Source: an uncultured Methanosarcinales archaeon (GTDB lineage Archaea; Nanobdellota; Nanobdellia; Woesearchaeales; JASKKU01). From it: DNA of 53,127 nucleotides. This document shows positions 2,667 to 28,706 of this stretch, in pieces. The notes beneath the pieces are model-generated. The model did not search any database and was not told the origin of the DNA. It saw nothing but the letters and a program-made list of their open reading frames with translations. The stretch is from contig CAYQFL010000001.1 of the NCBI GenBank assembly GCA_964416905.1, positions 39,520 to 92,646 of the forward strand. Reading direction: 5' to 3'. How positions within the stretch are numbered: position 1 is the first letter of the stretch; the number at the start of each line of letters is the position of its first letter. A program made the position numbers and the translations under genes.

Positions 2667-5600
2667 ATAATCTTAAGCTTTTTTCGGCGCTTGTAGCAGT
2701 TTTAGCATTAGTTTATGTTTTCACATATAGCTTACCCCCTAATGTCAAAGCAGACATATGGGATAGTTTCTTTAATGGATTCAATAGCATAACTGGATTT
2801 TTAACTGAAGAGGATTATCTTGGAACCTGTTCTGATCCTGTAGGGAATCAAACACCTTATTTTCCCTGCGTTTTACCATCGCAGATAAACCTAACACAGG
2901 GCGATAACTTTCTTTATCAGATATGTTATGCCGACCCGGAAAATGATCCTGTATTGATAAAAGCGGCGCCTGCGCCTGGCGAAGATTCCTGGAACAAGAT
3001 TATCAACAGCATGAACTATAGTGGTTTCATTAACATAACCTTAGACAACAGCGATGTAGGAATTCATAAAGTAATTTATCTTCTACAAGATGCGTGCCAT
3101 TCAGACGATCTAAATAATAAACAAATCATCTATTATGTAAACAACACAAATGATGTTCCAGTCATTGTTGATAAAGCGCCGAACCAAACAGGAGTTACAC
3201 TATTTGAAAATGAGACAGCCTTATTTTCAATAAATGCTACAGACCCCGACCTTTTTGTAGATCAAAGAGTCTTCAATGAAACTTTAAATTACACTTGGAC
3301 TTTAAACAGCTTGATCGTCAAAACAGAAAATGAAACTAAGAATACAAGCTCTAATTATAGCGCGTTCTTTGATTTCTGCAGTGCCGGAACTTGGCAACTA
3401 AGTATTGAAGTCAAAGATAAATCCGGAGAAAAAGATGAGTTCTTATGGACTATCCAAATTAATGATGTAAATAGAGTCCCATATCAAAATGAATCATTCC
3501 CCGAAAATATAACGTTAGATGAAGACAACCCAGCCCTGAATGCCCTAAACATGTACGACTATTTTACAGACCCTGATTTAGAAGAATGCGGAGCTTCAGA
3601 CACAGATTTAAACTTCACATCAGATGTACCTTGGGTTTTTGTAGATAATATCTCAAAGAACTTATCAATAATACCTCCTCAAGACTGGTTTGGAGTCATA
3701 AACGTAAGCTTTAATGTAACTGATGGAATTGCAGAAAACCAGAGTGAAAACCTAACAATAATTGTTAACCCAGTGCCCGATGCGCCAAGAATCGAAAACT
3801 TAACTAATGAAACAGCTGTTGCTAATTTTCCTTTCCATTACAAAATTGACGCCTACGACCCAGATGGAGACAACATCACTTTTTATGATAATACAAGTTT
3901 GTTTGAAATAGATTCAAACAGTGGAGAAATCAGTTTTACTCCGGACATTGCCGATGCAGGATTGCATCACATAAATATAACTGTTGTAGATAACACTAGC
4001 AGACAGACAAGTGCAATATTCAACCTAACAATCATAATAAATCAACCACCAGTTTTCACAAAATGTGAAAATATAACAACTTATGAGAATAACAATACCT
4101 TTGTAGAAGTAGAATACTTTGATCCTGAAGGTGATAATATTAGCGTTTCTGATAATTCAACCCTGTTCACAATAGCCAAAGTTAACAACACATATGCATC
4201 AGCTACGTTCACGCCAACAAATGATGATGTAGGCAACCATACTGTAAACATAACATTAACAGATAGTTGGAATTCTTCCTCGAGCTGTTTAATGGCTATA
4301 GAGATTATTGATGTGAACAATCCACCAGTACTTCAAGAAATAGAAAGCCCTCAGGAATTAAGAATCAATAAAAGTTATTATCTAAAGGTTAATGCTACGG
4401 ATGCTGATGATGATCCTCTAAACTTCTCAGATAATTCCACTGTAATAAACATAAGTGAAACAGGCATAATCAACATAACAAATGTTTCAATACCAGTTGG
4501 GGATTATTTAGTAAACATTAGCGTTTGCGATCCTTACGGATTATGTGATTGGCAGAACGTAATCTTCTCAGTTAAAATAAACCATCCACCACAGTTCATA
4601 GATTTAGATAAAGATTTCAGTTGTGAAGAAGACACACCTTGCTACATTGACTTCAATGCTACTGACCCCGAGAATGACGCAGTATATTTTAGCATTAATG
4701 ATTCTAGTATACTTATCAACAAAACAAGCGGCGAGGTTAACTTCACTAAAAGTGAACCTCAGTTATTGAATATAACGCTGACAGCTACTGATAACTGGAA
4801 TGACTCAAATTCCACTTCAGTTTTAATAAACATCACAGAGAAAAATGATCCCCCTTTAATCCTAGAAGAAAGCACATTAGATATAACTGCTGAAGTTAAT
4901 AGTTTAGTAATCGTTGAAATCTACCTTTATGACGAGGAAAACGACACAATAAACTTAACCCAAAACGATACAAGCCTCTTTAATTTAACCCAAATAAACA
5001 ACACGTATTATAATGCATCATTTGTCCCAACACTCAGTCAAATAGGAGTCCACAAGATTTTATTAAATGCTTCAGATTTAAAATCTAGTACTAGTAAAGT
5101 TTTAACAATAAACATAACACCTGAGAATCTACCTCCAACAATCAATAATAGAACACCGTCTCAATCCTCTCTTGGATTGTATGAAATGGACAGCATATTC
5201 TTTTCAGTGAATGCAAGTGATCCTGAAGGCGAAAATCTACAATATGCATATATCTTAGATAACAAAGTCGTTTCCACACAAAAGAATTATACATATAGAC
5301 CAGATTGGTATTCTGAAGGCACTCATAACTTACAGGTTAATGTTACCGATGAGCATAATAAAACAAATTCAACATCCTGGAGCATATATGTAACCAACCG
5401 TAATAGGAAGCCTATAATGCTAAAAAGGGTATTTAATTCTTCAATAGACCTCGATTGGATTAATGAAAGTATTTTAAATGATGTTGTCTTCAACAATGAA
5501 AATCTTCAGTTTGAATTAGAAAAAGTCAACGGCAATTATACAAGCAACGGCTCAATAATCTTCCCAATAATCTCCTTTAAAACTGATGCTTTCACTGAAC

Positions 5601-6922
5601 CAAGTATTGGAATACAAGCTGAAAACATTATGGTTTCTCCGAATTGCACAACCAATGTTACATACCAGTACAGATTTTCTACCAACAATCCGCCATTAGA
5701 GTTTATTGAAGACCTTGCATGGTCAGAGTGGAGTAGTGAAGATTCAGAGCTTAATGAGAAGACTTTAAATGTATCCACTAGTTCAAAATACTGGCAGATT
5801 AAAGTAAACCTAAGAACTAATTGCACCAACGAGAGCCCTAGAGTAAAAGGTGCTGTTTTTTCTTTCAAACCTGCAACAGTAGATGTATTTCAAGGCGTAG
5901 CTGAAGCTCAATGGATTTATCTACCTGATTTTGTATATGACCCAGATAAGGATGATAAGTTAAGTTATAACGCTTCTTCGGTCATTCCAGGCATAGAAGT
6001 TTTCCCAGACCCTGAAGAAGAGCCTTGGCCTAATACTGGCTGGCTCTACCTATCTACACCAGATTACTTTGCCGGGAAGACCAGCATAAATCTAAGTGTA
6101 AAAGATGACCATAATGATGAAGTAAACGATTTGTTCCCAATAAATGTATTAGAAAGACCTTCAGAGGTTGGTACAAGGATTGAATACAAAATAAAAACTA
6201 AGACCGAGATTCAATACGAAGAAAAGATTGTTGAAAAAGAAGTTCCAAGATATGAATCTTTTAATCTGATTGTTCCGGAAAAAATAACTTTGTATCCAAA
6301 CGATTCTATTGTTGTTCCAATTACTTTAGACAACTATGGCAACAAAACCTTGAACGAAGTCAGGCTTTATGCAAACAGTTCCAGAGATGACGTTGACATT
6401 TTCCTTACGCAAGATTACTTTAAAGTGATCAAATCAGAAAGCCAAGAGAAAACTGAATTAATAGTAACAACTAAAAATATATATGGAGGTTTTGATATTG
6501 TTGTAACTGCAGAAATACAAGACCCGCCATTCAACGATACTGCCAAAATAATAATGGCAACTTTAGAGAAAGGCGAACATAATTCTTCTCAACTTTACAC
6601 AAAAGTATCTTTTACCAGGGATTTACTTAAATCCAACGAACAATGTTTAGAACTAAATGAAATGGTTAAAGAAGCTGAAAACTTGATTTCCCAAGGCAAA
6701 TATTCTTCTGCAGAACAGCTATTACAATCAACTATTGAAGCCTGCAAATATTTAGTAAGTACTAAACAGAGTAAAGAGGAACTTAAAGTTGAGCAAAGAC
6801 CTATTAAGTTTGAGATCTCTTTGAAAAACAATACGTTCATCTTGATAACCATAATTAGTATTTCGTTCATATTGCTGGTAATTATACTATATTGGTTAAC
6901 AGTAGTTCCAAGAAAGAGATAA
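2663..6922 (+). CDS. Giant surface glycoprotein/adhesin (1419 aa) with tandem cadherin/Ig-like repeats and C-terminal TM anchor
   Basis: N-terminal signal peptide, about 10 modules bounded by N(x)PP / DP(D/E)xD motifs, more than 50 N-x-S/T sequons, C-terminal TM FILITIISISFILLVIILYWL followed by PRKR. ATGA overlap with the upstream stop. Confidence 0.85.
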   Translation: MNNLKLFSALVAVLALVYVFTYSLPPNVKADIWDSFFNGFNSITGFLTEEDYLGTCSDPVGNQTPYFPCVLPSQINLTQGDNFLYQICYADPENDPVLIKAAPAPGEDSWNKIINSMNYSGFINITLDNSDVGIHKVIYLLQDACHSDDLNNKQIIYYVNNTNDVPVIVDKAPNQTGVTLFENETALFSINATDPDLFVDQRVFNETLNYTWTLNSLIVKTENETKNTSSNYSAFFDFCSAGTWQLSIEVKDKSGEKDEFLWTIQINDVNRVPYQNESFPENITLDEDNPALNALNMYDYFTDPDLEECGASDTDLNFTSDVPWVFVDNISKNLSIIPPQDWFGVINVSFNVTDGIAENQSENLTIIVNPVPDAPRIENLTNETAVANFPFHYKIDAYDPDGDNITFYDNTSLFEIDSNSGEISFTPDIADAGLHHINITVVDNTSRQTSAIFNLTIIINQPPVFTKCENITTYENNNTFVEVEYFDPEGDNISVSDNSTLFTIAKVNNTYASATFTPTNDDVGNHTVNITLTDSWNSSSSCLMAIEIIDVNNPPVLQEIESPQELRINKSYYLKVNATDADDDPLNFSDNSTVINISETGIINITNVSIPVGDYLVNISVCDPYGLCDWQNVIFSVKINHPPQFIDLDKDFSCEEDTPCYIDFNATDPENDAVYFSINDSSILINKTSGEVNFTKSEPQLLNITLTATDNWNDSNSTSVLINITEKNDPPLILEESTLDITAEVNSLVIVEIYLYDEENDTINLTQNDTSLFNLTQINNTYYNASFVPTLSQIGVHKILLNASDLKSSTSKVLTINITPENLPPTINNRTPSQSSLGLYEMDSIFFSVNASDPEGENLQYAYILDNKVVSTQKNYTYRPDWYSEGTHNLQVNVTDEHNKTNSTSWSIYVTNRNRKPIMLKRVFNSSIDLDWINESILNDVVFNNENLQFELEKVNGNYTSNGSIIFPIISFKTDAFTEPSIGIQAENIMVSPNCTTNVTYQYRFSTNNPPLEFIEDLAWSEWSSEDSELNEKTLNVSTSSKYWQIKVNLRTNCTNESPRVKGAVFSFKPATVDVFQGVAEAQWIYLPDFVYDPDKDDKLSYNASSVIPGIEVFPDPEEEPWPNTGWLYLSTPDYFAGKTSINLSVKDDHNDEVNDLFPINVLERPSEVGTRIEYKIKTKTEIQYEEKIVEKEVPRYESFNLIVPEKITLYPNDSIVVPITLDNYGNKTLNEVRLYANSSRDDVDIFLTQDYFKVIKSESQEKTELIVTTKNIYGGFDIVVTAEIQDPPFNDTAKIIMATLEKGEHNSSQLYTKVSFTRDLLKSNEQCLELNEMVKEAENLISQGKYSSAEQLLQSTIEACKYLVSTKQSKEELKVEQRPIKFEISLKNNTFILITIISISFILLVIILYWLTVVPRKR

Positions 6923-9610: not shown

Positions 9611-10567
9611 ATGGTCCAAATTGTATTTCAGAATGCAGAATTTTTATGGTTCTTGATTATTTTAGTGTGGATCATAGTAACTCATTTATTTATTTCTATA
9701 AAAGTAAAACAGAAAGCATTCCTTTTTGCCAACTTCGAAGTCCTTAAAAAGGTTGTATTCGAAGATAAAACCGAACCAAAAACAAACAAAATCAATTTAT
9801 CTTTAGATATTCTATTTCTAAGATTATTGACACTTACTTTCTTAATATTGTCTCTATGTCATCCTGTTGTGTGGTATGAGGGGAATGTTGCAAACAGGAA
9901 TTATGTACTAGCCATAGACTCATCAAGTTCTATGCTAGCTGATGACTTAAATCCAAATAGATTTGAGGTTGCGAAAAGTCACAGCAAATTCTTGGTAAAC
10001 AGAATAAAATCATTAAATTCGAAAGTAGGTATAGTCTCATTTGCAGGTTCATCCTTAATTGTTTCTGAGTTATCTGATGATTATGAAAAATTATTATCAA
10101 AGATTGATTCTATGGACGTATTAAACATCCCGGGAACAGATTTAGGCGAAGCCATAATAACCTCAGTAAACATTCTTCAATCTGAAACAAAACCTGGAGC
10201 AGTCATTTTAATCACGGATGGAAGGTCAACAGTAGGAACAAACCTCGAACAGGCAGTTTATTATGCAAGGGAGCGTCAAATTCCTGTATACACAATAGGT
10301 GTAGGTACCAAAGAAGGCGGTAAATTCATACCTGCTGGGTTCACAAAGCTCGACGAAGATCAATTGAAACAGATTGCTGAACAAACCGATGGAAAGTTTT
10401 TCAGAGCTGAAACAAAAGAAGATTTAGGAGAAAGTCTAAAAGAGATTGTTGAAATTGAAAAAGGTAAAGTTCCTTTAGATTTATCGATACCATTTATGCT
10501 TATAGGCTTAATCTTACTAAGCATCGAATGGGGAGTTCTAAACACAAAACGTAGGACCTTGCCATAA
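9611..10567 (+). CDS. BatA-like membrane vWA domain protein
   Basis: N-terminal BatA-like TM (FQNAEFLWFL), MIDAS LAIDSSSSM, NRFEVAK, GTDLGEAI, LITDG, YTIGVG, C-terminal TM. Confidence 0.9.
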   Translation: MVQIVFQNAEFLWFLIILVWIIVTHLFISIKVKQKAFLFANFEVLKKVVFEDKTEPKTNKINLSLDILFLRLLTLTFLILSLCHPVVWYEGNVANRNYVLAIDSSSSMLADDLNPNRFEVAKSHSKFLVNRIKSLNSKVGIVSFAGSSLIVSELSDDYEKLLSKIDSMDVLNIPGTDLGEAIITSVNILQSETKPGAVILITDGRSTVGTNLEQAVYYARERQIPVYTIGVGTKEGGKFIPAGFTKLDEDQLKQIAEQTDGKFFRAETKEDLGESLKEIVEIEKGKVPLDLSIPFMLIGLILLSIEWGVLNTKRRTLP

Positions 10568-19987: not shown

Positions 19988-20112
19988 TGCCGGCGCGGGG
20001 CTTTGAACCCCGGACCTCTAGATGTCCCAGTTAGAGCTTTTATCATCGCAAAAAGCTCAGCACTCATAAAACTTATGAGTCTAGCGCTCTGACCAGGCTG
20101 AGCTACGCCGGC
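19988..20112 (-). tRNA. tRNA-Met(CAT), elongator type, with 50-nt canonical 37/38 intron (20024..20073)
   Basis: GCCGGCG/CGCCGGC acceptor stem. BHB: CTCA/TGGG central helix, bulges TAA and ACA, outer GTT/AAC helix. Mature length 75 nt. Met rather than Ile2 is inferred from the acceptor stem. Confidence 0.92.
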
Positions 20113-23097: not shown

Positions 23098-23160
23098 TGT
23101 TCATATATAACCGGAACAATATAAATAATTTTGCCGGAAAGGTAGCGGAACGATGGGAAC
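23098..23160. promoter_or_regulatory. Divergent promoter region with (C/G)GGAA(C/A) repeats and a TGTTC-N11-GAACA inverted repeat around a TATA box
   Basis: CGGAA at 23112, 23135 and 23146, GGGAAC at 23155; TATATAA at 23104-23110. Confidence 0.45.
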
Positions 23161-23896
23161 GAAGCCTTATTTTAAAGCAATAACAACCTTTGCAATCATT
23201 TTTTTTGTCTCAATGAACTTTAGTTTAGCATATTTCGGCGATTTAACAATAGACATCAACCAAAAAGGAGAAGTAACAATAACTGGAGAAACTGATTGCG
23301 AAGAATTAAGCAACTTGAATAATGTTCTAAAATTCACTTCTATTAGAAACAACAAAATCTTGGTTAACATTTCCTCAAAATGTTTCTTTGAATCCATTTC
23401 TTACGAACTCATGCTACCTAAGAATGCTTTAGTGAATTATTTCAAATCTTCAACCAGATATGTAATAACCAGCGAAAAAGAAAGACTAATCATAAAAAGC
23501 TCAGATTCTTCAGAAACATTAGAGATTTTGGTACAATTCTCTACCACTAATGAAAACCAGCAAAATTATATCTTATTCTTTTTCATAACAACTACAATTA
23601 TCTCAATAATTATCATTATATGGCTAGTAATCAAACAGAAGAAATCTCTTACAATTATCAACGAAGAATTGAATGAGCGGCAAAAACAAATAATCAACAT
23701 TTTGCTCAAAGAAAAATCAATATCTCAAGCAGAATTAACAAAAAGGCTTAACCTTCCAAAGTCTTCAGTATCACGAAATGTAAACTCGTTATTGAGAAAG
23801 GGAATAATCATTAAAGAAAAGAAAACAAAAACGAACATCCTTAAACTAAATCCAGAATACCATAAAAATCAAAGAAAAGAAGAAAACAAAAATTAA
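23153..23896 (+). CDS. Membrane-anchored winged-helix transcription regulator (COG2512-like)
   Basis: Signal peptide, extracytoplasmic beta-rich domain, TM ILFFFITTTIISIIIIIWLVI, then wHTH LNERQKQIINILLKEKSISQAELTKRLNLPKSSVSRNVNSLLRKGII. Confidence 0.85.
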   Translation: MGTKPYFKAITTFAIIFFVSMNFSLAYFGDLTIDINQKGEVTITGETDCEELSNLNNVLKFTSIRNNKILVNISSKCFFESISYELMLPKNALVNYFKSSTRYVITSEKERLIIKSSDSSETLEILVQFSTTNENQQNYILFFFITTTIISIIIIIWLVIKQKKSLTIINEELNERQKQIINILLKEKSISQAELTKRLNLPKSSVSRNVNSLLRKGIIIKEKKTKTNILKLNPEYHKNQRKEENKN

Positions 23897-26595
23897 CTAA
23901 TAGTACATGCGCTCCAGCCACAACTGTGACAAGTTTTGCATCCAGACTCTGCTGTTAATTTGCTTCCACAAATAGGGCAAATGTCAACGCCTTTTTTTCC
24001 TTCTTCATTTAAAACAACTCTTGGGTTAAAAGAACCTGTTTTTTTACTTTGTTGAACATTCTTGTTCTCGGATGCAGATGAAAGAAACACATCTAAACTC
24101 TTGTTTGATCCTTCTGACTCTAATATCTCTGAAACATTCAAAAGCTCTCCAAGTTTAGGCTTCTGGTTGATTAATCCTTTTAACTTATCGCTTGAATATT
24201 TTGAAGGTCTCAACAAGAATCTCTGCTTTGAATCATCTCCTTCAACATTCAAAACCTGACCAAACTTACTACCATCTCTATAAACAGTTACACCCTTACA
24301 ATTAAGTTCATGAGCTAACAAATAGGCATACTTAATGTCATCAACGCTTACCCATTTCTTCATATTTATGGTTTTACTAATACTATCAGTAACCCATAAC
24401 TGCATTTCAGCTTGTGCTACCAGATGGTCTAACCAATGCAAGTCCATTGCTGTAACGAAAATCTCCTTTAAATCCTCAGGAATTTCATCAATATTCTGAA
24501 TACTGCCGCCATTAGCGCTTATTTTCTTCAACAACTCTTCACTATAAAGTCCTCTCTTCTTAAGTTCCTCCTCAAAAACTGGGTCAACGTAAAAGAAGTT
24601 GCCTACAGTGACCCTCTTCTCAAAAACTAATGCAAAAATCGGTTCTATGCCACTAGTAGTGTCAGCAATCATGCTAACTGAACCTGTAGGCGGACATGTT
24701 GATACCATACCGTTCCTTAAACCATTCTTCTGGATATCTTTAACTAAATTTTCCCAGTTTAATGTCCACAACTCTTTATGATAAAATCCTTCGATTGGCA
24801 AATCGCCATTAACATAGTTCGTTTTATCAAATAAGGGGAAAGGTCCTCTGTGCTTAGCTATTTCAACAGATTCAACATAGGCGTAATAAGTCAGATGTTC
24901 CAGAATCTTTCTCATAAAAGCAAAGCCTTCCTGACTATTATACTTTATCTTCATCATAAAAAGCGCTTCAGCTAAACCCATAACTCCTATTCCAATCCTT
25001 CTAGTCAATTTTGTTGCTCTATGAATTTTATCTAAAGGATAGTTGTTAACTTCCATCATGTTGTTTAGGTACCTAGTGACTTTTCTTACAACTTTATGGA
25101 AAGAATCCCAATCAAACTTACCATCAACAACAAACTTGTTCAAGCTAACGCTCGCCAAGTTACAGGATTCGTTAGGATACAAAGGTTCTTCTCCACAAGG
25201 ATTAGTTACTTTAATCTTATCTCCCTTTGCTGGCTCCAAAACATTACGCTTGTTAATGTTATCTAAGAACAAAACTCCGGGATCAGCAATAGACCAGGCA
25301 TAATAAGATATTAACTCAAACACTTCTTTAGCATCCTGCTTGTTAACCTCTTCCCCTGTCCTTGGGTTAATCAAAGGATACTTTTTATTTTCATACAAGG
25401 CATTCCAGAAATGGTCCCAGAGACCTACTGAGATATTAAAGTTTGATAACACACCATCCTTTTCTTTACATTTTATGAAATCGATAATGTCAGGGTGCCA
25501 GTCCTCTAAAATACCCATATTGGCTCCTCGTCTGACACCACCTTGCTTTATAACATCTGAAACTGAATCAATAAGTTTCATAAAAGACAAAGGACCAGAT
25601 GAAACGCCTCTTGTTGAGTCAACCACATCATCCTTTGGTCTAAGCTTAGAAAAGTTTATACCTGTTCCGCCACCGCATTTTTGAATAATTGCAACATCGT
25701 GAGCTAGTTGCATAATTGATTCCATGTCATCCTCAACATCTAACGTGAAACATGCAGAAAGCATACCTAACCTTCTGCCAGCATTAATTAAAGCAGGCGT
25801 ATTTGGCATGAAATATTTATTAGTCAAGAGTTCAAACGCTTCCTCAATCATCTGTTCATATTTATTAAAGTAGCCTTCGTTTAGCAACTTAAGAAACCCA
25901 TCAACACTAATTATAATATGACCTTCTTCAGCCAACTCTTTAAATAATGTTAACAACCTTTCAAACATATACTTATTTAAGCTAAACCTTCCAATCTTAA
26001 ACTTGGAATCATATTCCTCTGACAAAGCAATCAACTCATCAATCCTTTTAGTATCCTGCTTAAAATTGCCTTCTTTAGAATAAACCTTATCATCAAACAC
26101 TAATTCAGCTAAAACTGAAATAATGCTAACCCGCTCAAACAACTCTCTTGGACTTTCAACGATATTGTTGTTCTCATCCCTTATTAAATACCTGGAAGCA
26201 AGAACTCTCAAAGCATTTAAAGAAAATGATTTATCAATCTCATCAAGTTTTTCCTTGTTCAAAACAAGCTTTTTCTCATTCCTTTCATCTGTCTTCTTCT
26301 TTCTATATAAAATAAAAGCCTTAGCAACATCAAACAACCTCTTCCGCATTAAAGCTATTTCAATTATATCCTGAATCTCTTCAACATTAGGTTCTTTATC
26401 CTTAAATTGTATAGCAATAAGATTAAGAGCTTCATCAACAACTTCGTTCAACAATTTTTCATCAGCTTTGTTCTCTGCAAGCATCGCTTTCCAAACAGAA
26501 TTTTTTATTCTCGTTACATCAAACTCAGCTTTTCTACCATCACGCTTAACTACATATTTAGGTAAATTGTTATTTAAGATTTCTTCAGCCATCAT
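23893..26595 (-). CDS. nrdJ: Class II (adenosylcobalamin-dependent) ribonucleotide reductase with ATP cone, no inteins
   Basis: ATP cone VVKRDGRKAEFD, FMPNTP, LSACF, GGVRRGANM, TNPCGEEPL, CPPTGSVSM, C-terminal CPICG...GCKTCHSCGWSAC. ATG at 26595 or 26592. Confidence 0.95.
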   Translation of the reverse strand: MMAEEILNNNLPKYVVKRDGRKAEFDVTRIKNSVWKAMLAENKADEKLLNEVVDEALNLIAIQFKDKEPNVEEIQDIIEIALMRKRLFDVAKAFILYRKKKTDERNEKKLVLNKEKLDEIDKSFSLNALRVLASRYLIRDENNNIVESPRELFERVSIISVLAELVFDDKVYSKEGNFKQDTKRIDELIALSEEYDSKFKIGRFSLNKYMFERLLTLFKELAEEGHIIISVDGFLKLLNEGYFNKYEQMIEEAFELLTNKYFMPNTPALINAGRRLGMLSACFTLDVEDDMESIMQLAHDVAIIQKCGGGTGINFSKLRPKDDVVDSTRGVSSGPLSFMKLIDSVSDVIKQGGVRRGANMGILEDWHPDIIDFIKCKEKDGVLSNFNISVGLWDHFWNALYENKKYPLINPRTGEEVNKQDAKEVFELISYYAWSIADPGVLFLDNINKRNVLEPAKGDKIKVTNPCGEEPLYPNESCNLASVSLNKFVVDGKFDWDSFHKVVRKVTRYLNNMMEVNNYPLDKIHRATKLTRRIGIGVMGLAEALFMMKIKYNSQEGFAFMRKILEHLTYYAYVESVEIAKHRGPFPLFDKTNYVNGDLPIEGFYHKELWTLNWENLVKDIQKNGLRNGMVSTCPPTGSVSMIADTTSGIEPIFALVFEKRVTVGNFFYVDPVFEEELKKRGLYSEELLKKISANGGSIQNIDEIPEDLKEIFVTAMDLHWLDHLVAQAEMQLWVTDSISKTINMKKWVSVDDIKYAYLLAHELNCKGVTVYRDGSKFGQVLNVEGDDSKQRFLLRPSKYSSDKLKGLINQKPKLGELLNVSEILESEGSNKSLDVFLSSASENKNVQQSKKTGSFNPRVVLNEEGKKGVDICPICGSKLTAESGCKTCHSCGWSACTIS

Positions 26596-26600
26596 AGACA

Positions 26601-26648
26601 CCACAAGATATTGTGTTATTAACTAGTTAAAACAACAACATTATGTCC
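26601..26648. promoter_or_regulatory. Tandem NrdR-box-like operators upstream of nrdJ
   Basis: Box 1 CCACAAGATATTGTGT (26601-26616) matches acaCwAtATaTwGtgt at 14/16. Box 2 CAACAACATTATGTCC (26633-26648) is weaker. Starts are 32 bp apart with a 16-bp linker. Confidence 0.7.
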
Positions 26649-26655
26649 TTTTTGA

Positions 26656-26663
26656 TATTTAAA
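26656..26663 (-). promoter_or_regulatory. TATA box of nrdJ (TTTAAATA)
   Basis: Canonical archaeal TATA octamer on the minus strand just upstream of box 2. Confidence 0.55.
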
Positions 26664-26807
26664 TAGATTTTGATACTTCAAAAATACAAATTAAATAAAT
26701 CAGTTAACAAATATATTTCATAAATCAGAAATCGTTTAAAAACACTTTAAAAACACAACTAAGAGTAGGAATACAAAATTAGAAACAAGAAAAATAAAAT
26801 GTAAAAC

Positions 26808-28706
26808 TTATTTTAATCGTATACTCTCAAGATTCTTAGGCAAATTCGTCTCAACTTTGTAAGTGCGGTGTATAGAACTTGCTAAATTCAAAGCCCTGCT
26901 AACCTCACCATGCACTAGGATTACTTTCTTGGGCTTAGGATTTAAAGAGCCGACGAAAGCCATTAACTGCTTCCTGTCACTGTGACCGCTTAAACCTTCA
27001 ATAGTAATTACATTCATTCTAAGATTAAGAACCTCATGTTTATTACCACCGGTTGCAAAGTATATCTCTCGTTCGCCGTTCTGAATTCTTCGTCCTAAAG
27101 AACCTTCGCCCTGGTAAGACACAAAGATTAAGGTGTTATTTGGATTATCTCCAAGATTCCTAAGATACTCTACACTGGGTCCACCGACAAGCATACCGGA
27201 TGTAGCTAAGATAATACACGGTCCTCCTTCAATAACTTGTTGTCGCTCCTTGCCTGAACCCACTGTCTTAAAATGTTCTGAAAGGAACGGATTATGTCCC
27301 TCAGTGAATATCATCTTCTTAAGGTTCTTATTAAAAAACTCAGGATAAACAGAATAAACCGCAGTGATGTCCCAGACCATTCCGTCTATGTAGACAGGAA
27401 CTTCAGGCAGTTCTCCGTTCCTGATTGCATTCTCTATCAGAACCATTACCTCTTGAGCTCTTCCAGAACCAAGAACTGGGATCAAAACTTTGCCTTTTTT
27501 ATCAAGGGTTTCTTTAACTGCGTTAAGCAACAGCTCTTCGCTCTGTTTTCGCGAAGGCATAACATTATCTTTTCCACCATAAGTGCTTTCCATAATCAAA
27601 GTTTCTAATCTCTGAAAATTAGTTGGTGGCGGATCTAACAATAAAGTCCTTGCAAACTTAATGTCTCCTGTATACATAAAGTTATGAAGGCCATTGCCAA
27701 CATTAATATGCGCCATTGCACTACCAAGAATATGTCCTGCATTATGTAAAGTTAATCTAACATCTGGAGTTATATCTGTAACAGTATCATAATCTAAAGT
27801 TATTGTGTGTTTTATGAATTCTTTGACATCATCTATTGTAAATATAGGGTCCTGCCGTTTCTCCATCATTACTTTAATAAAATCAATCAATAGAAGAGCT
27901 CCTACATCCCTTGTTGGTTCAGTGCAGTATACTGGTCCTCGATAACCAAACTTAAACAAGTAAGGTACCAAACCAATATGATCTAAATGAGAATGCGTTA
28001 TTATAACCGCATCCAACTCATTTATCCTAAACTCAGGCGCTTCAAGAAAAGGGTAAGGTCTAGAAGAATCAGTAACATCTATACCGCAATCAAGTAAAAC
28101 TCTAGATTCAGGAGTCTGTAGAAGCAAACTGCTCTTACCAACCTGCCTTGCGCCGCCTAAAAAGCTTATCCTAACCCATTCTTCTTTCTTGTTTTTAGTC
28201 CACCCTTCATAGATTCTCCTTCCAACCTTATTCAAAAAGTCTCTTCTATATTCTGATTCAAGAAACAAAACCTTTCTTATGTCTTCAACAATTTTGGATT
28301 TAACTGGTGGAGCTCGCCTAACGCCTGGAGTCCAGAGAGTTTTCCGCTTTATACTCTTTAATATGGAACCTTCTTTTCCAATAACTGCGCCGGGTTTATG
28401 TGCTTCAATTATAACCACTGACCTAGCAGGGTCAAACAGAATATCATTTATTTGAGCTTCCTCAGGAACCAATTGATGAATTACATCCGTAACGTTTTCA
28501 GGACTTGCAATTATTGCAGGGTCCGCCCTTAACTCAATCCTCTTTTTTAGAGCGTTAACTGCTTCTTTAAGATAACCGTTTGAGTTCAAAAAAAACTCCG
28601 CATCCTTCGTGTACAAAACAATGTTTGCTCCTTCAAAAAACACTTGACTTATTTTGTTCTCAGGTAAAATCTCAAAAAGTTCTTTAATAATTGGCAAATC
28701 TTTCAT
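26808..28706 (-). CDS. fttA: aCPSF1/FttA KH-beta-CASP ribonuclease (transcription termination factor)
   Basis: N-terminal KH domains (PGAVIGKEG), ITHSHLDHIG, NAGHILGS, METLIMESTYGG-type motif (LIMESTYGG), SGHSD, VHGE. Confidence 0.95.
   Translation of the reverse strand: MKDLPIIKELFEILPENKISQVFFEGANIVLYTKDAEFFLNSNGYLKEAVNALKKRIELRADPAIIASPENVTDVIHQLVPEEAQINDILFDPARSVVIIEAHKPGAVIGKEGSILKSIKRKTLWTPGVRRAPPVKSKIVEDIRKVLFLESEYRRDFLNKVGRRIYEGWTKNKKEEWVRISFLGGARQVGKSSLLLQTPESRVLLDCGIDVTDSSRPYPFLEAPEFRINELDAVIITHSHLDHIGLVPYLFKFGYRGPVYCTEPTRDVGALLLIDFIKVMMEKRQDPIFTIDDVKEFIKHTITLDYDTVTDITPDVRLTLHNAGHILGSAMAHINVGNGLHNFMYTGDIKFARTLLLDPPPTNFQRLETLIMESTYGGKDNVMPSRKQSEELLLNAVKETLDKKGKVLIPVLGSGRAQEVMVLIENAIRNGELPEVPVYIDGMVWDITAVYSVYPEFFNKNLKKMIFTEGHNPFLSEHFKTVGSGKERQQVIEGGPCIILATSGMLVGGPSVEYLRNLGDNPNNTLIFVSYQGEGSLGRRIQNGEREIYFATGGNKHEVLNLRMNVITIEGLSGHSDRKQLMAFVGSLNPKPKKVILVHGEVSRALNLASSIHRTYKVETNLPKNLESIRLK

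Follow-up and report, generated by a model that had tools for sequence, protein, structure and literature searches.

[quoted passage not shown] The requirements for an NrdR box are known in some detail. [quoted passage not shown] The published NrdR-box surveys that we found cover bacterial genomes. In the searchable literature we found no experimental test of an archaeal NrdR, no characterized archaeal NrdR box, and no paper that connects NrdR to DPANN or to archaeal TATA promoters.

Here, we describe a box pair in an archaeal window, i.e., the whole 53-kb stretch of DNA that was analyzed. With a probability of about 0.85, judged from sequence comparisons, the pair (26601–26648) is a functional NrdR operator of the class II ribonucleotide reductase (RNR) gene nrdJ, the repressor gene nrdR being predicted elsewhere in this Woesearchaeota-like genome.

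The box pair upstream of nrdJ

The window has a GC content of 34% and carries the archaeal marker genes Rpb7, Spt4, S24e, S27e, Hef, a proteasome subunit, and aCPSF1. The closest genome is a Candidatus Woesearchaeota MAG (identity 78% for NrdJ and 92% for aCPSF1), hence the label "DPANN archaeon" given in the initial annotation is reasonable. Elsewhere in the window, at 19988–20112 (minus strand), Rfam yields a 125-nt tRNA match for which ARAGORN made no call; this is presumably an intron-containing archaeal tRNA.

The features of the nrdJ region are as follows (distances are from the nrdJ ATG).

23153–23896, plus strand: wHTH gene (247 aa), convergent with nrdJ, with a 4-bp overlap with its stop codon
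23893–26595, minus strand: nrdJ, class II RNR (900 aa), by Pfam and TIGR02504
26595..26590, minus strand: start codons ATGATG of nrdJ, the second in-frame ATG being at 26592
26616..26601, minus strand: NrdR box 1 (proximal), ACACAATATCTTGTGG, at −21..−6
26632..26617, minus strand: 16-bp linker, TTTTAACTAGTTAATA, at −37..−22
26648..26633, minus strand: NrdR box 2 (distal), GGACATAATGTTGTTG, at −53..−38
26808–28706, minus strand: aCPSF1-like gene, 5′ neighbor of nrdJ

The nrdJ gene is the sole RNR gene within the 53-kb window. Its product comprises an N-terminal ATP-cone, Ribonuc_red_lgN, and Ribonuc_red_lgC (Pfam), scores 708 bits against TIGR02504 (NrdJ_Z; cutoff 400), and is assigned by these matches to the adenosylcobalamin-dependent class II ribonucleotide reductases. 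The nearest named proteins are Thermococcales NrdJ (59% identity). The 212-bp spacer between the aCPSF1-like gene and nrdJ holds the box pair, a 48-bp element that ends 5 nt before the nrdJ start codon.

Box 1 matches the NrdR consensus ACACWATATATWGTGT at 14/16 positions, including all six key positions, while box 2 matches it at 9/16 positions only and retains five of the six key positions, with A6 replaced by T. In vitro, the A6T change is neutral for the E. coli NrdR and causes a 3-fold loss for the S. coelicolor NrdR (PMC13584703). In both boxes, 8 bp lie between C4 and G13, and 7/8 of these are A/T (ACAC-AATATCTT-GTGG in box 1 and GGAC-ATAATGTT-GTTG in box 2). Box 2 starts exactly 32 bp from the start of box 1. 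Hence, the recomputed values reproduce the initial annotation, which had given 14/16 matches with all core positions for box 1, and for box 2 a 32-bp register with a 16-bp linker, both exact in the sequence. Overall, the element combines the features of an NrdR operator: paired 16-bp boxes, the C4/G13 spacing, at least 63% A/T, a linker of 15–16 bp, and the location at an RNR promoter.

The published loose regular expression for box pairs matches this site as well, but it also yields ~3 matches per simulated window at 34% GC. As it is unspecific in DNA of this composition, it was replaced with a strict pair criterion that combines key-position and consensus scoring.

Conservation of the boxes and association with nrdR

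The search of the genome collection with NrdJ yielded one close relative, the locus L002 from the Woesearchaeota MAG JASKKU01; another locus considered here, L012, is a JGI metagenome contig. Both show the same aCPSF1–nrdJ–wHTH synteny as the window at ~75% nucleotide identity, and both keep the two boxes, the exact 16-bp linker, and the distance to the start codon. In these loci, box 1 reads ACACAATAT[A/G]TTGTGG and box 2 reads [C/T]AACAGAATATTGTTG. Box 2 of both carries A6G; in vitro, A6G in both boxes lowers the affinity 4–10-fold (PMC13584703). Across the three sequences, 15/16 positions of box 1 and 12/16 positions of box 2 are invariant (27/32 in total), versus 6/16 in the linker and 84/176 in the remaining spacer (Fisher p = 8e-5, boxes versus linker plus remaining spacer). 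Conserved boxes at a fixed spacing, with a free linker sequence, are the pattern predicted by NrdR biochemistry.

Two further blocks of the spacer, TTTTTAAAC[G/A]ATTTCTGA (26725–26742) and AAATATATTTGTTAA (26704–26718), both on the minus strand, equal the NrdR boxes in their conservation across L002 and L012. These blocks have no Rfam match and could be another promoter, the site of a second regulator, or a 3′-end signal of aCPSF1. Compared with the window, a contig from ENA (L001) shows 3 mismatches over 16.6 kb (99.98% identity); the mismatch at 26639 falls on position 10 of box 2 (minus-strand G to A) and brings the box closer to the consensus.

A check suggested with the initial annotation was the search for box pairs in related nrdJ upstream regions; the pair is conserved in L002 and L012, as described above, and patchy elsewhere. 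No box pair is seen in the nrdJ promoters of L007 (75%-identical NrdJ, different synteny) and L009, and the pair of L008 does not pass the strict criterion; hence, the regulon is unevenly distributed in this group, and its loss is conceivable. The L008 locus (56%-identical nrdJ) has, at 9961–9976, the 16-mer TTGCAAAATTTTGTTT with 6/6 key positions, directly 3′ of the TATA-like TTTTTAAAT; its partner GGAAAAAATATGGCTA, with 5/6 key positions, covers the start codon 31 bp further downstream and is recognized by the loose criterion only. In L007, nrdJ is flanked by a serpin gene upstream and a cob(I)alamin adenosyltransferase gene downstream (3440–3620; 6342–6857), and an ACATAA-N13-TTATGT inverted repeat is found upstream of nrdJ in place of the NrdR boxes, which suggests loss or rewiring of the regulon within the group.

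The window itself holds no nrdR, as the initial annotation had stated: none was found with an NrdR HMM (built from 14 real NrdRs) in all six-frame ORFs, or with Pfam in ten small ORFs, and a phmmer search of the window with an approximate E. coli NrdR sequence, a test of low sensitivity, gave no match either. In the search for an nrdR of the same sample, three candidates (P0139, P0208, and P0238) proved to be located on bacterial contigs and were rejected. One reading of this result is that the lineage has lost NrdR and that the boxes are decaying leftovers of an operator without present function, with which the deviation of box 2 at one key position and the lack of boxes in the close relative L007 would also agree. 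We consider such a relic quite improbable: three lineages of ~75% identity retain 27/32 box positions and an unaltered spacing despite changes at 10/16 linker positions, and boxes and spacing retained next to a diverged linker indicate selection rather than decay. By analogy with L093, a Woesearchaeota MAG in which nrdR stands alone, unlinked to RNR genes, the organism of the window probably has an unlinked nrdR elsewhere in its genome.

In related archaea, the boxes are associated with nrdR itself. In L011, found via P0120 (NrdJ 55% identical), a 152-aa protein with Zn_ribbon_NrdR and ATP-cone domains is encoded immediately upstream of nrdJ, and the operon is preceded by ACACAATATGTTGTGG-N16-ACACAATATATTGTGT. 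The chaperonin of L011 is a thermosome (NF041082, 710 bits; cutoff 450), and the locus is therefore archaeal. The NrdR HMM applied to the fetched loci revealed nrdR-nrdJ operons on two short, putatively archaeal contigs (L015 and L020), each preceded by a box pair. An NCBI Candidatus Woesearchaeota MAG (L101) has an nrdR-nrdJ operon with the synteny of L011, and upstream of it a single canonical box with a shortened palindrome after it. A linker of 16 bp is seen in the window, L002, L012, L011, and L015, and one of 15 bp in L020. The shortened palindrome of L101, CCACTATATGTGG (region 5937–5981), is centered ~30.5 bp from the first box; it may exemplify the non-standard C–G distance that is tolerated in one of the boxes (PMC13584703).

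The NrdR proteins of relatives score well above the TIGR00244 cutoff of 124.65 bits: 185.6 for P0121 (L011), 196.6 for the L015 NrdR, and 204.6 for P0162. Several of the homology matches are named NrdR by NCBI, in MAGs of Woesearchaeota, Nanoarchaeota, and Micrarchaeia. The DNA-contact residues of NrdR have been described, D15 and R17 being the specificity residues (PMC9110341); the archaeal NrdRs compared keep the Zn-ribbon CxxC cysteines, D15, R17, RRRR26–29, and R37. The proposal of the initial annotation, a tandem NrdR operator at an archaeal nrdJ, is thus supported by the site statistics given below, by the footprint in close relatives, by the boxes preceding nrdR-nrdJ operons, and by TIGR00244-type NrdR in Woesearchaeota.

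The resemblance of the palindromes to NrdR boxes might also be superficial, the protein that binds them being another archaeal regulator. A candidate is the wHTH protein encoded at 23153–23896, with a C-terminal winged helix (residues 173–227; HTH_24/MarR_2/TrmB) and an N-terminal part of ~170 aa in which Pfam finds no known domain. The window, L001, L002, and L012 all have its gene in synteny with nrdJ, and the proteins of L002 and L012 are, respectively, 59 and 74% identical to the window copy. However, the gene is absent near the nrdR-nrdJ operons, which have the same boxes at 31–32 bp phasing; the same motif, with 31-bp phasing, precedes bacterial nrdJ genes in two Elusimicrobia loci (L003 and L004); and the boxes of the window match all the experimentally critical features of NrdR boxes. 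Binding by such a regulator in place of NrdR is therefore highly improbable, even more so than a relic operator.

Predicted promoter layout and repression

Three elements on the minus strand are relevant for the promoter of nrdJ.

26663..26655, minus strand: candidate TATA box (P1), TTTAAATAT, centered at −64, 8/9 matches to TTTAWAAAT
26624..26617, minus strand: weak TATA-like GTTAATAA, in the 3′ part of the linker, centered at −25
26602..26599, minus strand: Shine–Dalgarno-like GGTG, sharing two bases with the 3′ end of box 1 and separated from the second ATG by 6 nt

The promoter consensus of the genome, derived from the upstream regions of ~20 genes, is TTTAWAAAT, with the best matches centered at −26 to −32 from the start codons; given this clustering, most first genes are leaderless or nearly so. 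Internal or leadered genes of the window have GGTG 5–6 nt before the ATG. The nrdJ gene is atypical, as it has a good TATA match as far out as −64. The P1 TATA box is conserved in L002 and L012, although its distance from the boxes is 17 bp greater in L002; GGTG is also conserved in both, with a spacing of 6–7 nt. A scan for sigma-70 promoters scored below chance.

In archaea, the distance from the center of the TATA box to the start site is usually ~26 bp, which for P1 predicts transcription to begin at the 3′ end of box 2. Two layouts can be considered. The somewhat better one has box 2 between the TATA box and the start, and box 1 over the ribosome-binding site (RBS) in a leader of ~37 nt. 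The other, not far behind it, has the weak TATA-like GTTAATAA in the linker between the boxes and a leaderless mRNA, which is the standard geometry of this genome; the L015 operon suits this layout, with TTAATAAAA centered 26.5 nt before the ATG. The initial annotation had placed a TATA box at 26656–26663, and the TATA-like TTTAAATAT is indeed present there, at 26655–26663; the repressor layout that it had drawn from this fits the best TATA match and the conserved GGTG, yet it has to compete with the TATA-in-linker alternative and depends on a predicted start site. Under either layout, bound NrdR would overlap the region needed by the pre-initiation complex.

A further variant is rather unlikely: either the TATA/BRE is inside the linker and TBP is excluded by an NrdR-bent loop, or the clade lacks nrdR and another protein occupies the boxes. 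In the first case, an NrdR tetramer on both boxes would wrap the TBP/TFB site into sharply bent DNA and thereby exclude TBP. A TATA-in-linker operator, if true, would be a geometry unseen in bacteria.

The overlap of box 1 with GGTG also allows for an RNA element, namely, a box 1 hairpin in the 5′ leader that masks the Shine–Dalgarno sequence; box 1 would indeed be transcribed, if the start is set by the distal TATA box. Nevertheless, this explanation deserves very little credence: the leader is not predicted to fold better than shuffled sequences do (z = 0.24), no Rfam match is found at E ≤ 1, conservation is at the NrdR key positions without compensatory changes, and box 2 and the fixed phasing are left unexplained.

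Returning to the NrdR operator with box 2 between the P1 TATA box and the start, the following mechanism can be proposed. NrdR, a repressor with a Zn ribbon and an ATP-cone, would monitor the balance between dATP and ATP. If it behaves like its S. coelicolor and E. coli counterparts, it would respond to an increase in dATP by occupying both boxes as a tetramer loaded with dATP and ATP. With the boxes three helical turns apart, the tetramer would, again by analogy, kink the DNA sharply at each of them; for the S. coelicolor NrdR, the kink is ~90° at each box (PMC9110341). The operator would span the predicted start (~26 bp past the TATA box at 26655–26663), and the first ~35 nt of the leader with the RBS, and as it covers both start and RBS, bound NrdR should block either recruitment of RNA polymerase or promoter escape. 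Thus, nrdJ transcription from the TBP/TFB promoter would be shut down, and NrdR loaded with ATP only would be released from the DNA.

Specificity of the box pair and relation to known systems

Box 1 is the sole site of the 53-kb window with at most 3 mismatches to ACACWATATATWGTGT, and the core CACWA-N4-TWGTG occurs in the window once, with 0.26 occurrences expected. That the boxes are chance palindromes of A/T-rich intergenic DNA, as the low GC content and the frequent matches of the loose expression might suggest, has next to no probability, as there is one strict pair in 53 kb versus 0.047 expected by chance, its score was matched by 0/150 window-sized first-order Markov simulations, and the site is located at the sole RNR gene of the window, is conserved in relatives, and recurs with nrdR. 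Over 901 kb (the window and 100 loci), the strict criterion selects 10 pairs, and each of them immediately precedes an RNR gene or an nrdR-RNR operon, in archaeal as well as bacterial loci; ~70 other nrdJ upstream regions have no strict pair. In practice, the criterion, being fully specific over 0.9 Mb, may be used for regulon annotation in MAGs.

The operator would extend dNTP-sensing transcriptional control of DNA-precursor synthesis to Woesearchaeota-like DPANN with an archaeal-type nrdJ. It is mildly interesting in that a bacterial-type repressor would act on a Thermococcales-like nrdJ and that the operator reaches the RBS of a TBP/TFB-driven gene; being conserved, it provides a concrete case for studying the action of a Zn-ribbon/ATP-cone repressor on a TBP/TFB promoter. 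The advance is incremental, given that bacterial-type proteins make up the majority of archaeal transcription factors, that NrdR is present in 22% of archaeal genomes, and that it is annotated automatically in these lineages. The initial annotation overstated the novelty of archaeal NrdR control, given this share of archaeal genomes (PMC13584703) and the name NrdR that NCBI has assigned to proteins of Woesearchaeota and Nanoarchaeota MAGs. The site is a real but unsurprising further instance of a system known from other archaea.

Among the closest known systems are the nrdR-nrdJ operons of L011, L015, L020, and L101, whose NrdJ belongs to the same subfamily as that of the window (54–55% identity). 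Their boxes are near-identical to those of the window, ACACAATAT[ACG]TTGTGG, with 31–32 bp phasing and an A/T-rich linker. The difference is that in these operons the boxes precede nrdR, hence the repressor is autoregulated and co-transcribed with nrdJ, whereas in the clade of the window nrdJ stands alone behind aCPSF1 and the distal box is more degenerate.

The archaeal repressors MDR1, LrpA, and Phr have their binding sites at the TATA box or downstream of it and prevent the recruitment of RNA polymerase. They share with the predicted layout an operator over the start-site region of a TBP/TFB promoter. Unlike them, NrdR would bind as a pair of Zn-ribbon dimers on two phased boxes, with sharp kinks, and would respond to ATP/dATP via the ATP-cone.

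The bacterial operators of S. coelicolor (nrdRJ, nrdAB) and E. coli (nrdAB, nrdHIEF, nrdDG) likewise have paired, partially palindromic 16-bp boxes with C4/G13 and an A/T-rich center, and likewise a linker of 15–16 bp with free sequence, at the promoter of an RNR operon (PMC9110341, PMC13584703). In contrast to these, the target in the window is an archaeal-type nrdJ with a TATA-box promoter instead of −35/−10; the boxes are at or downstream of the predicted start and reach the RBS; and nrdR is unlinked. Finally, haloarchaea also have an archaeal NrdR with RNR genes, in nrdR-nrdA-nrdB or nrdR-nrdB-nrdA operons; there, the whole class I operon, including nrdR, was horizontally transferred from bacteria (PMC3019208), whereas in the window a bacterial-type repressor has apparently been wired to an archaeal-type class II gene.
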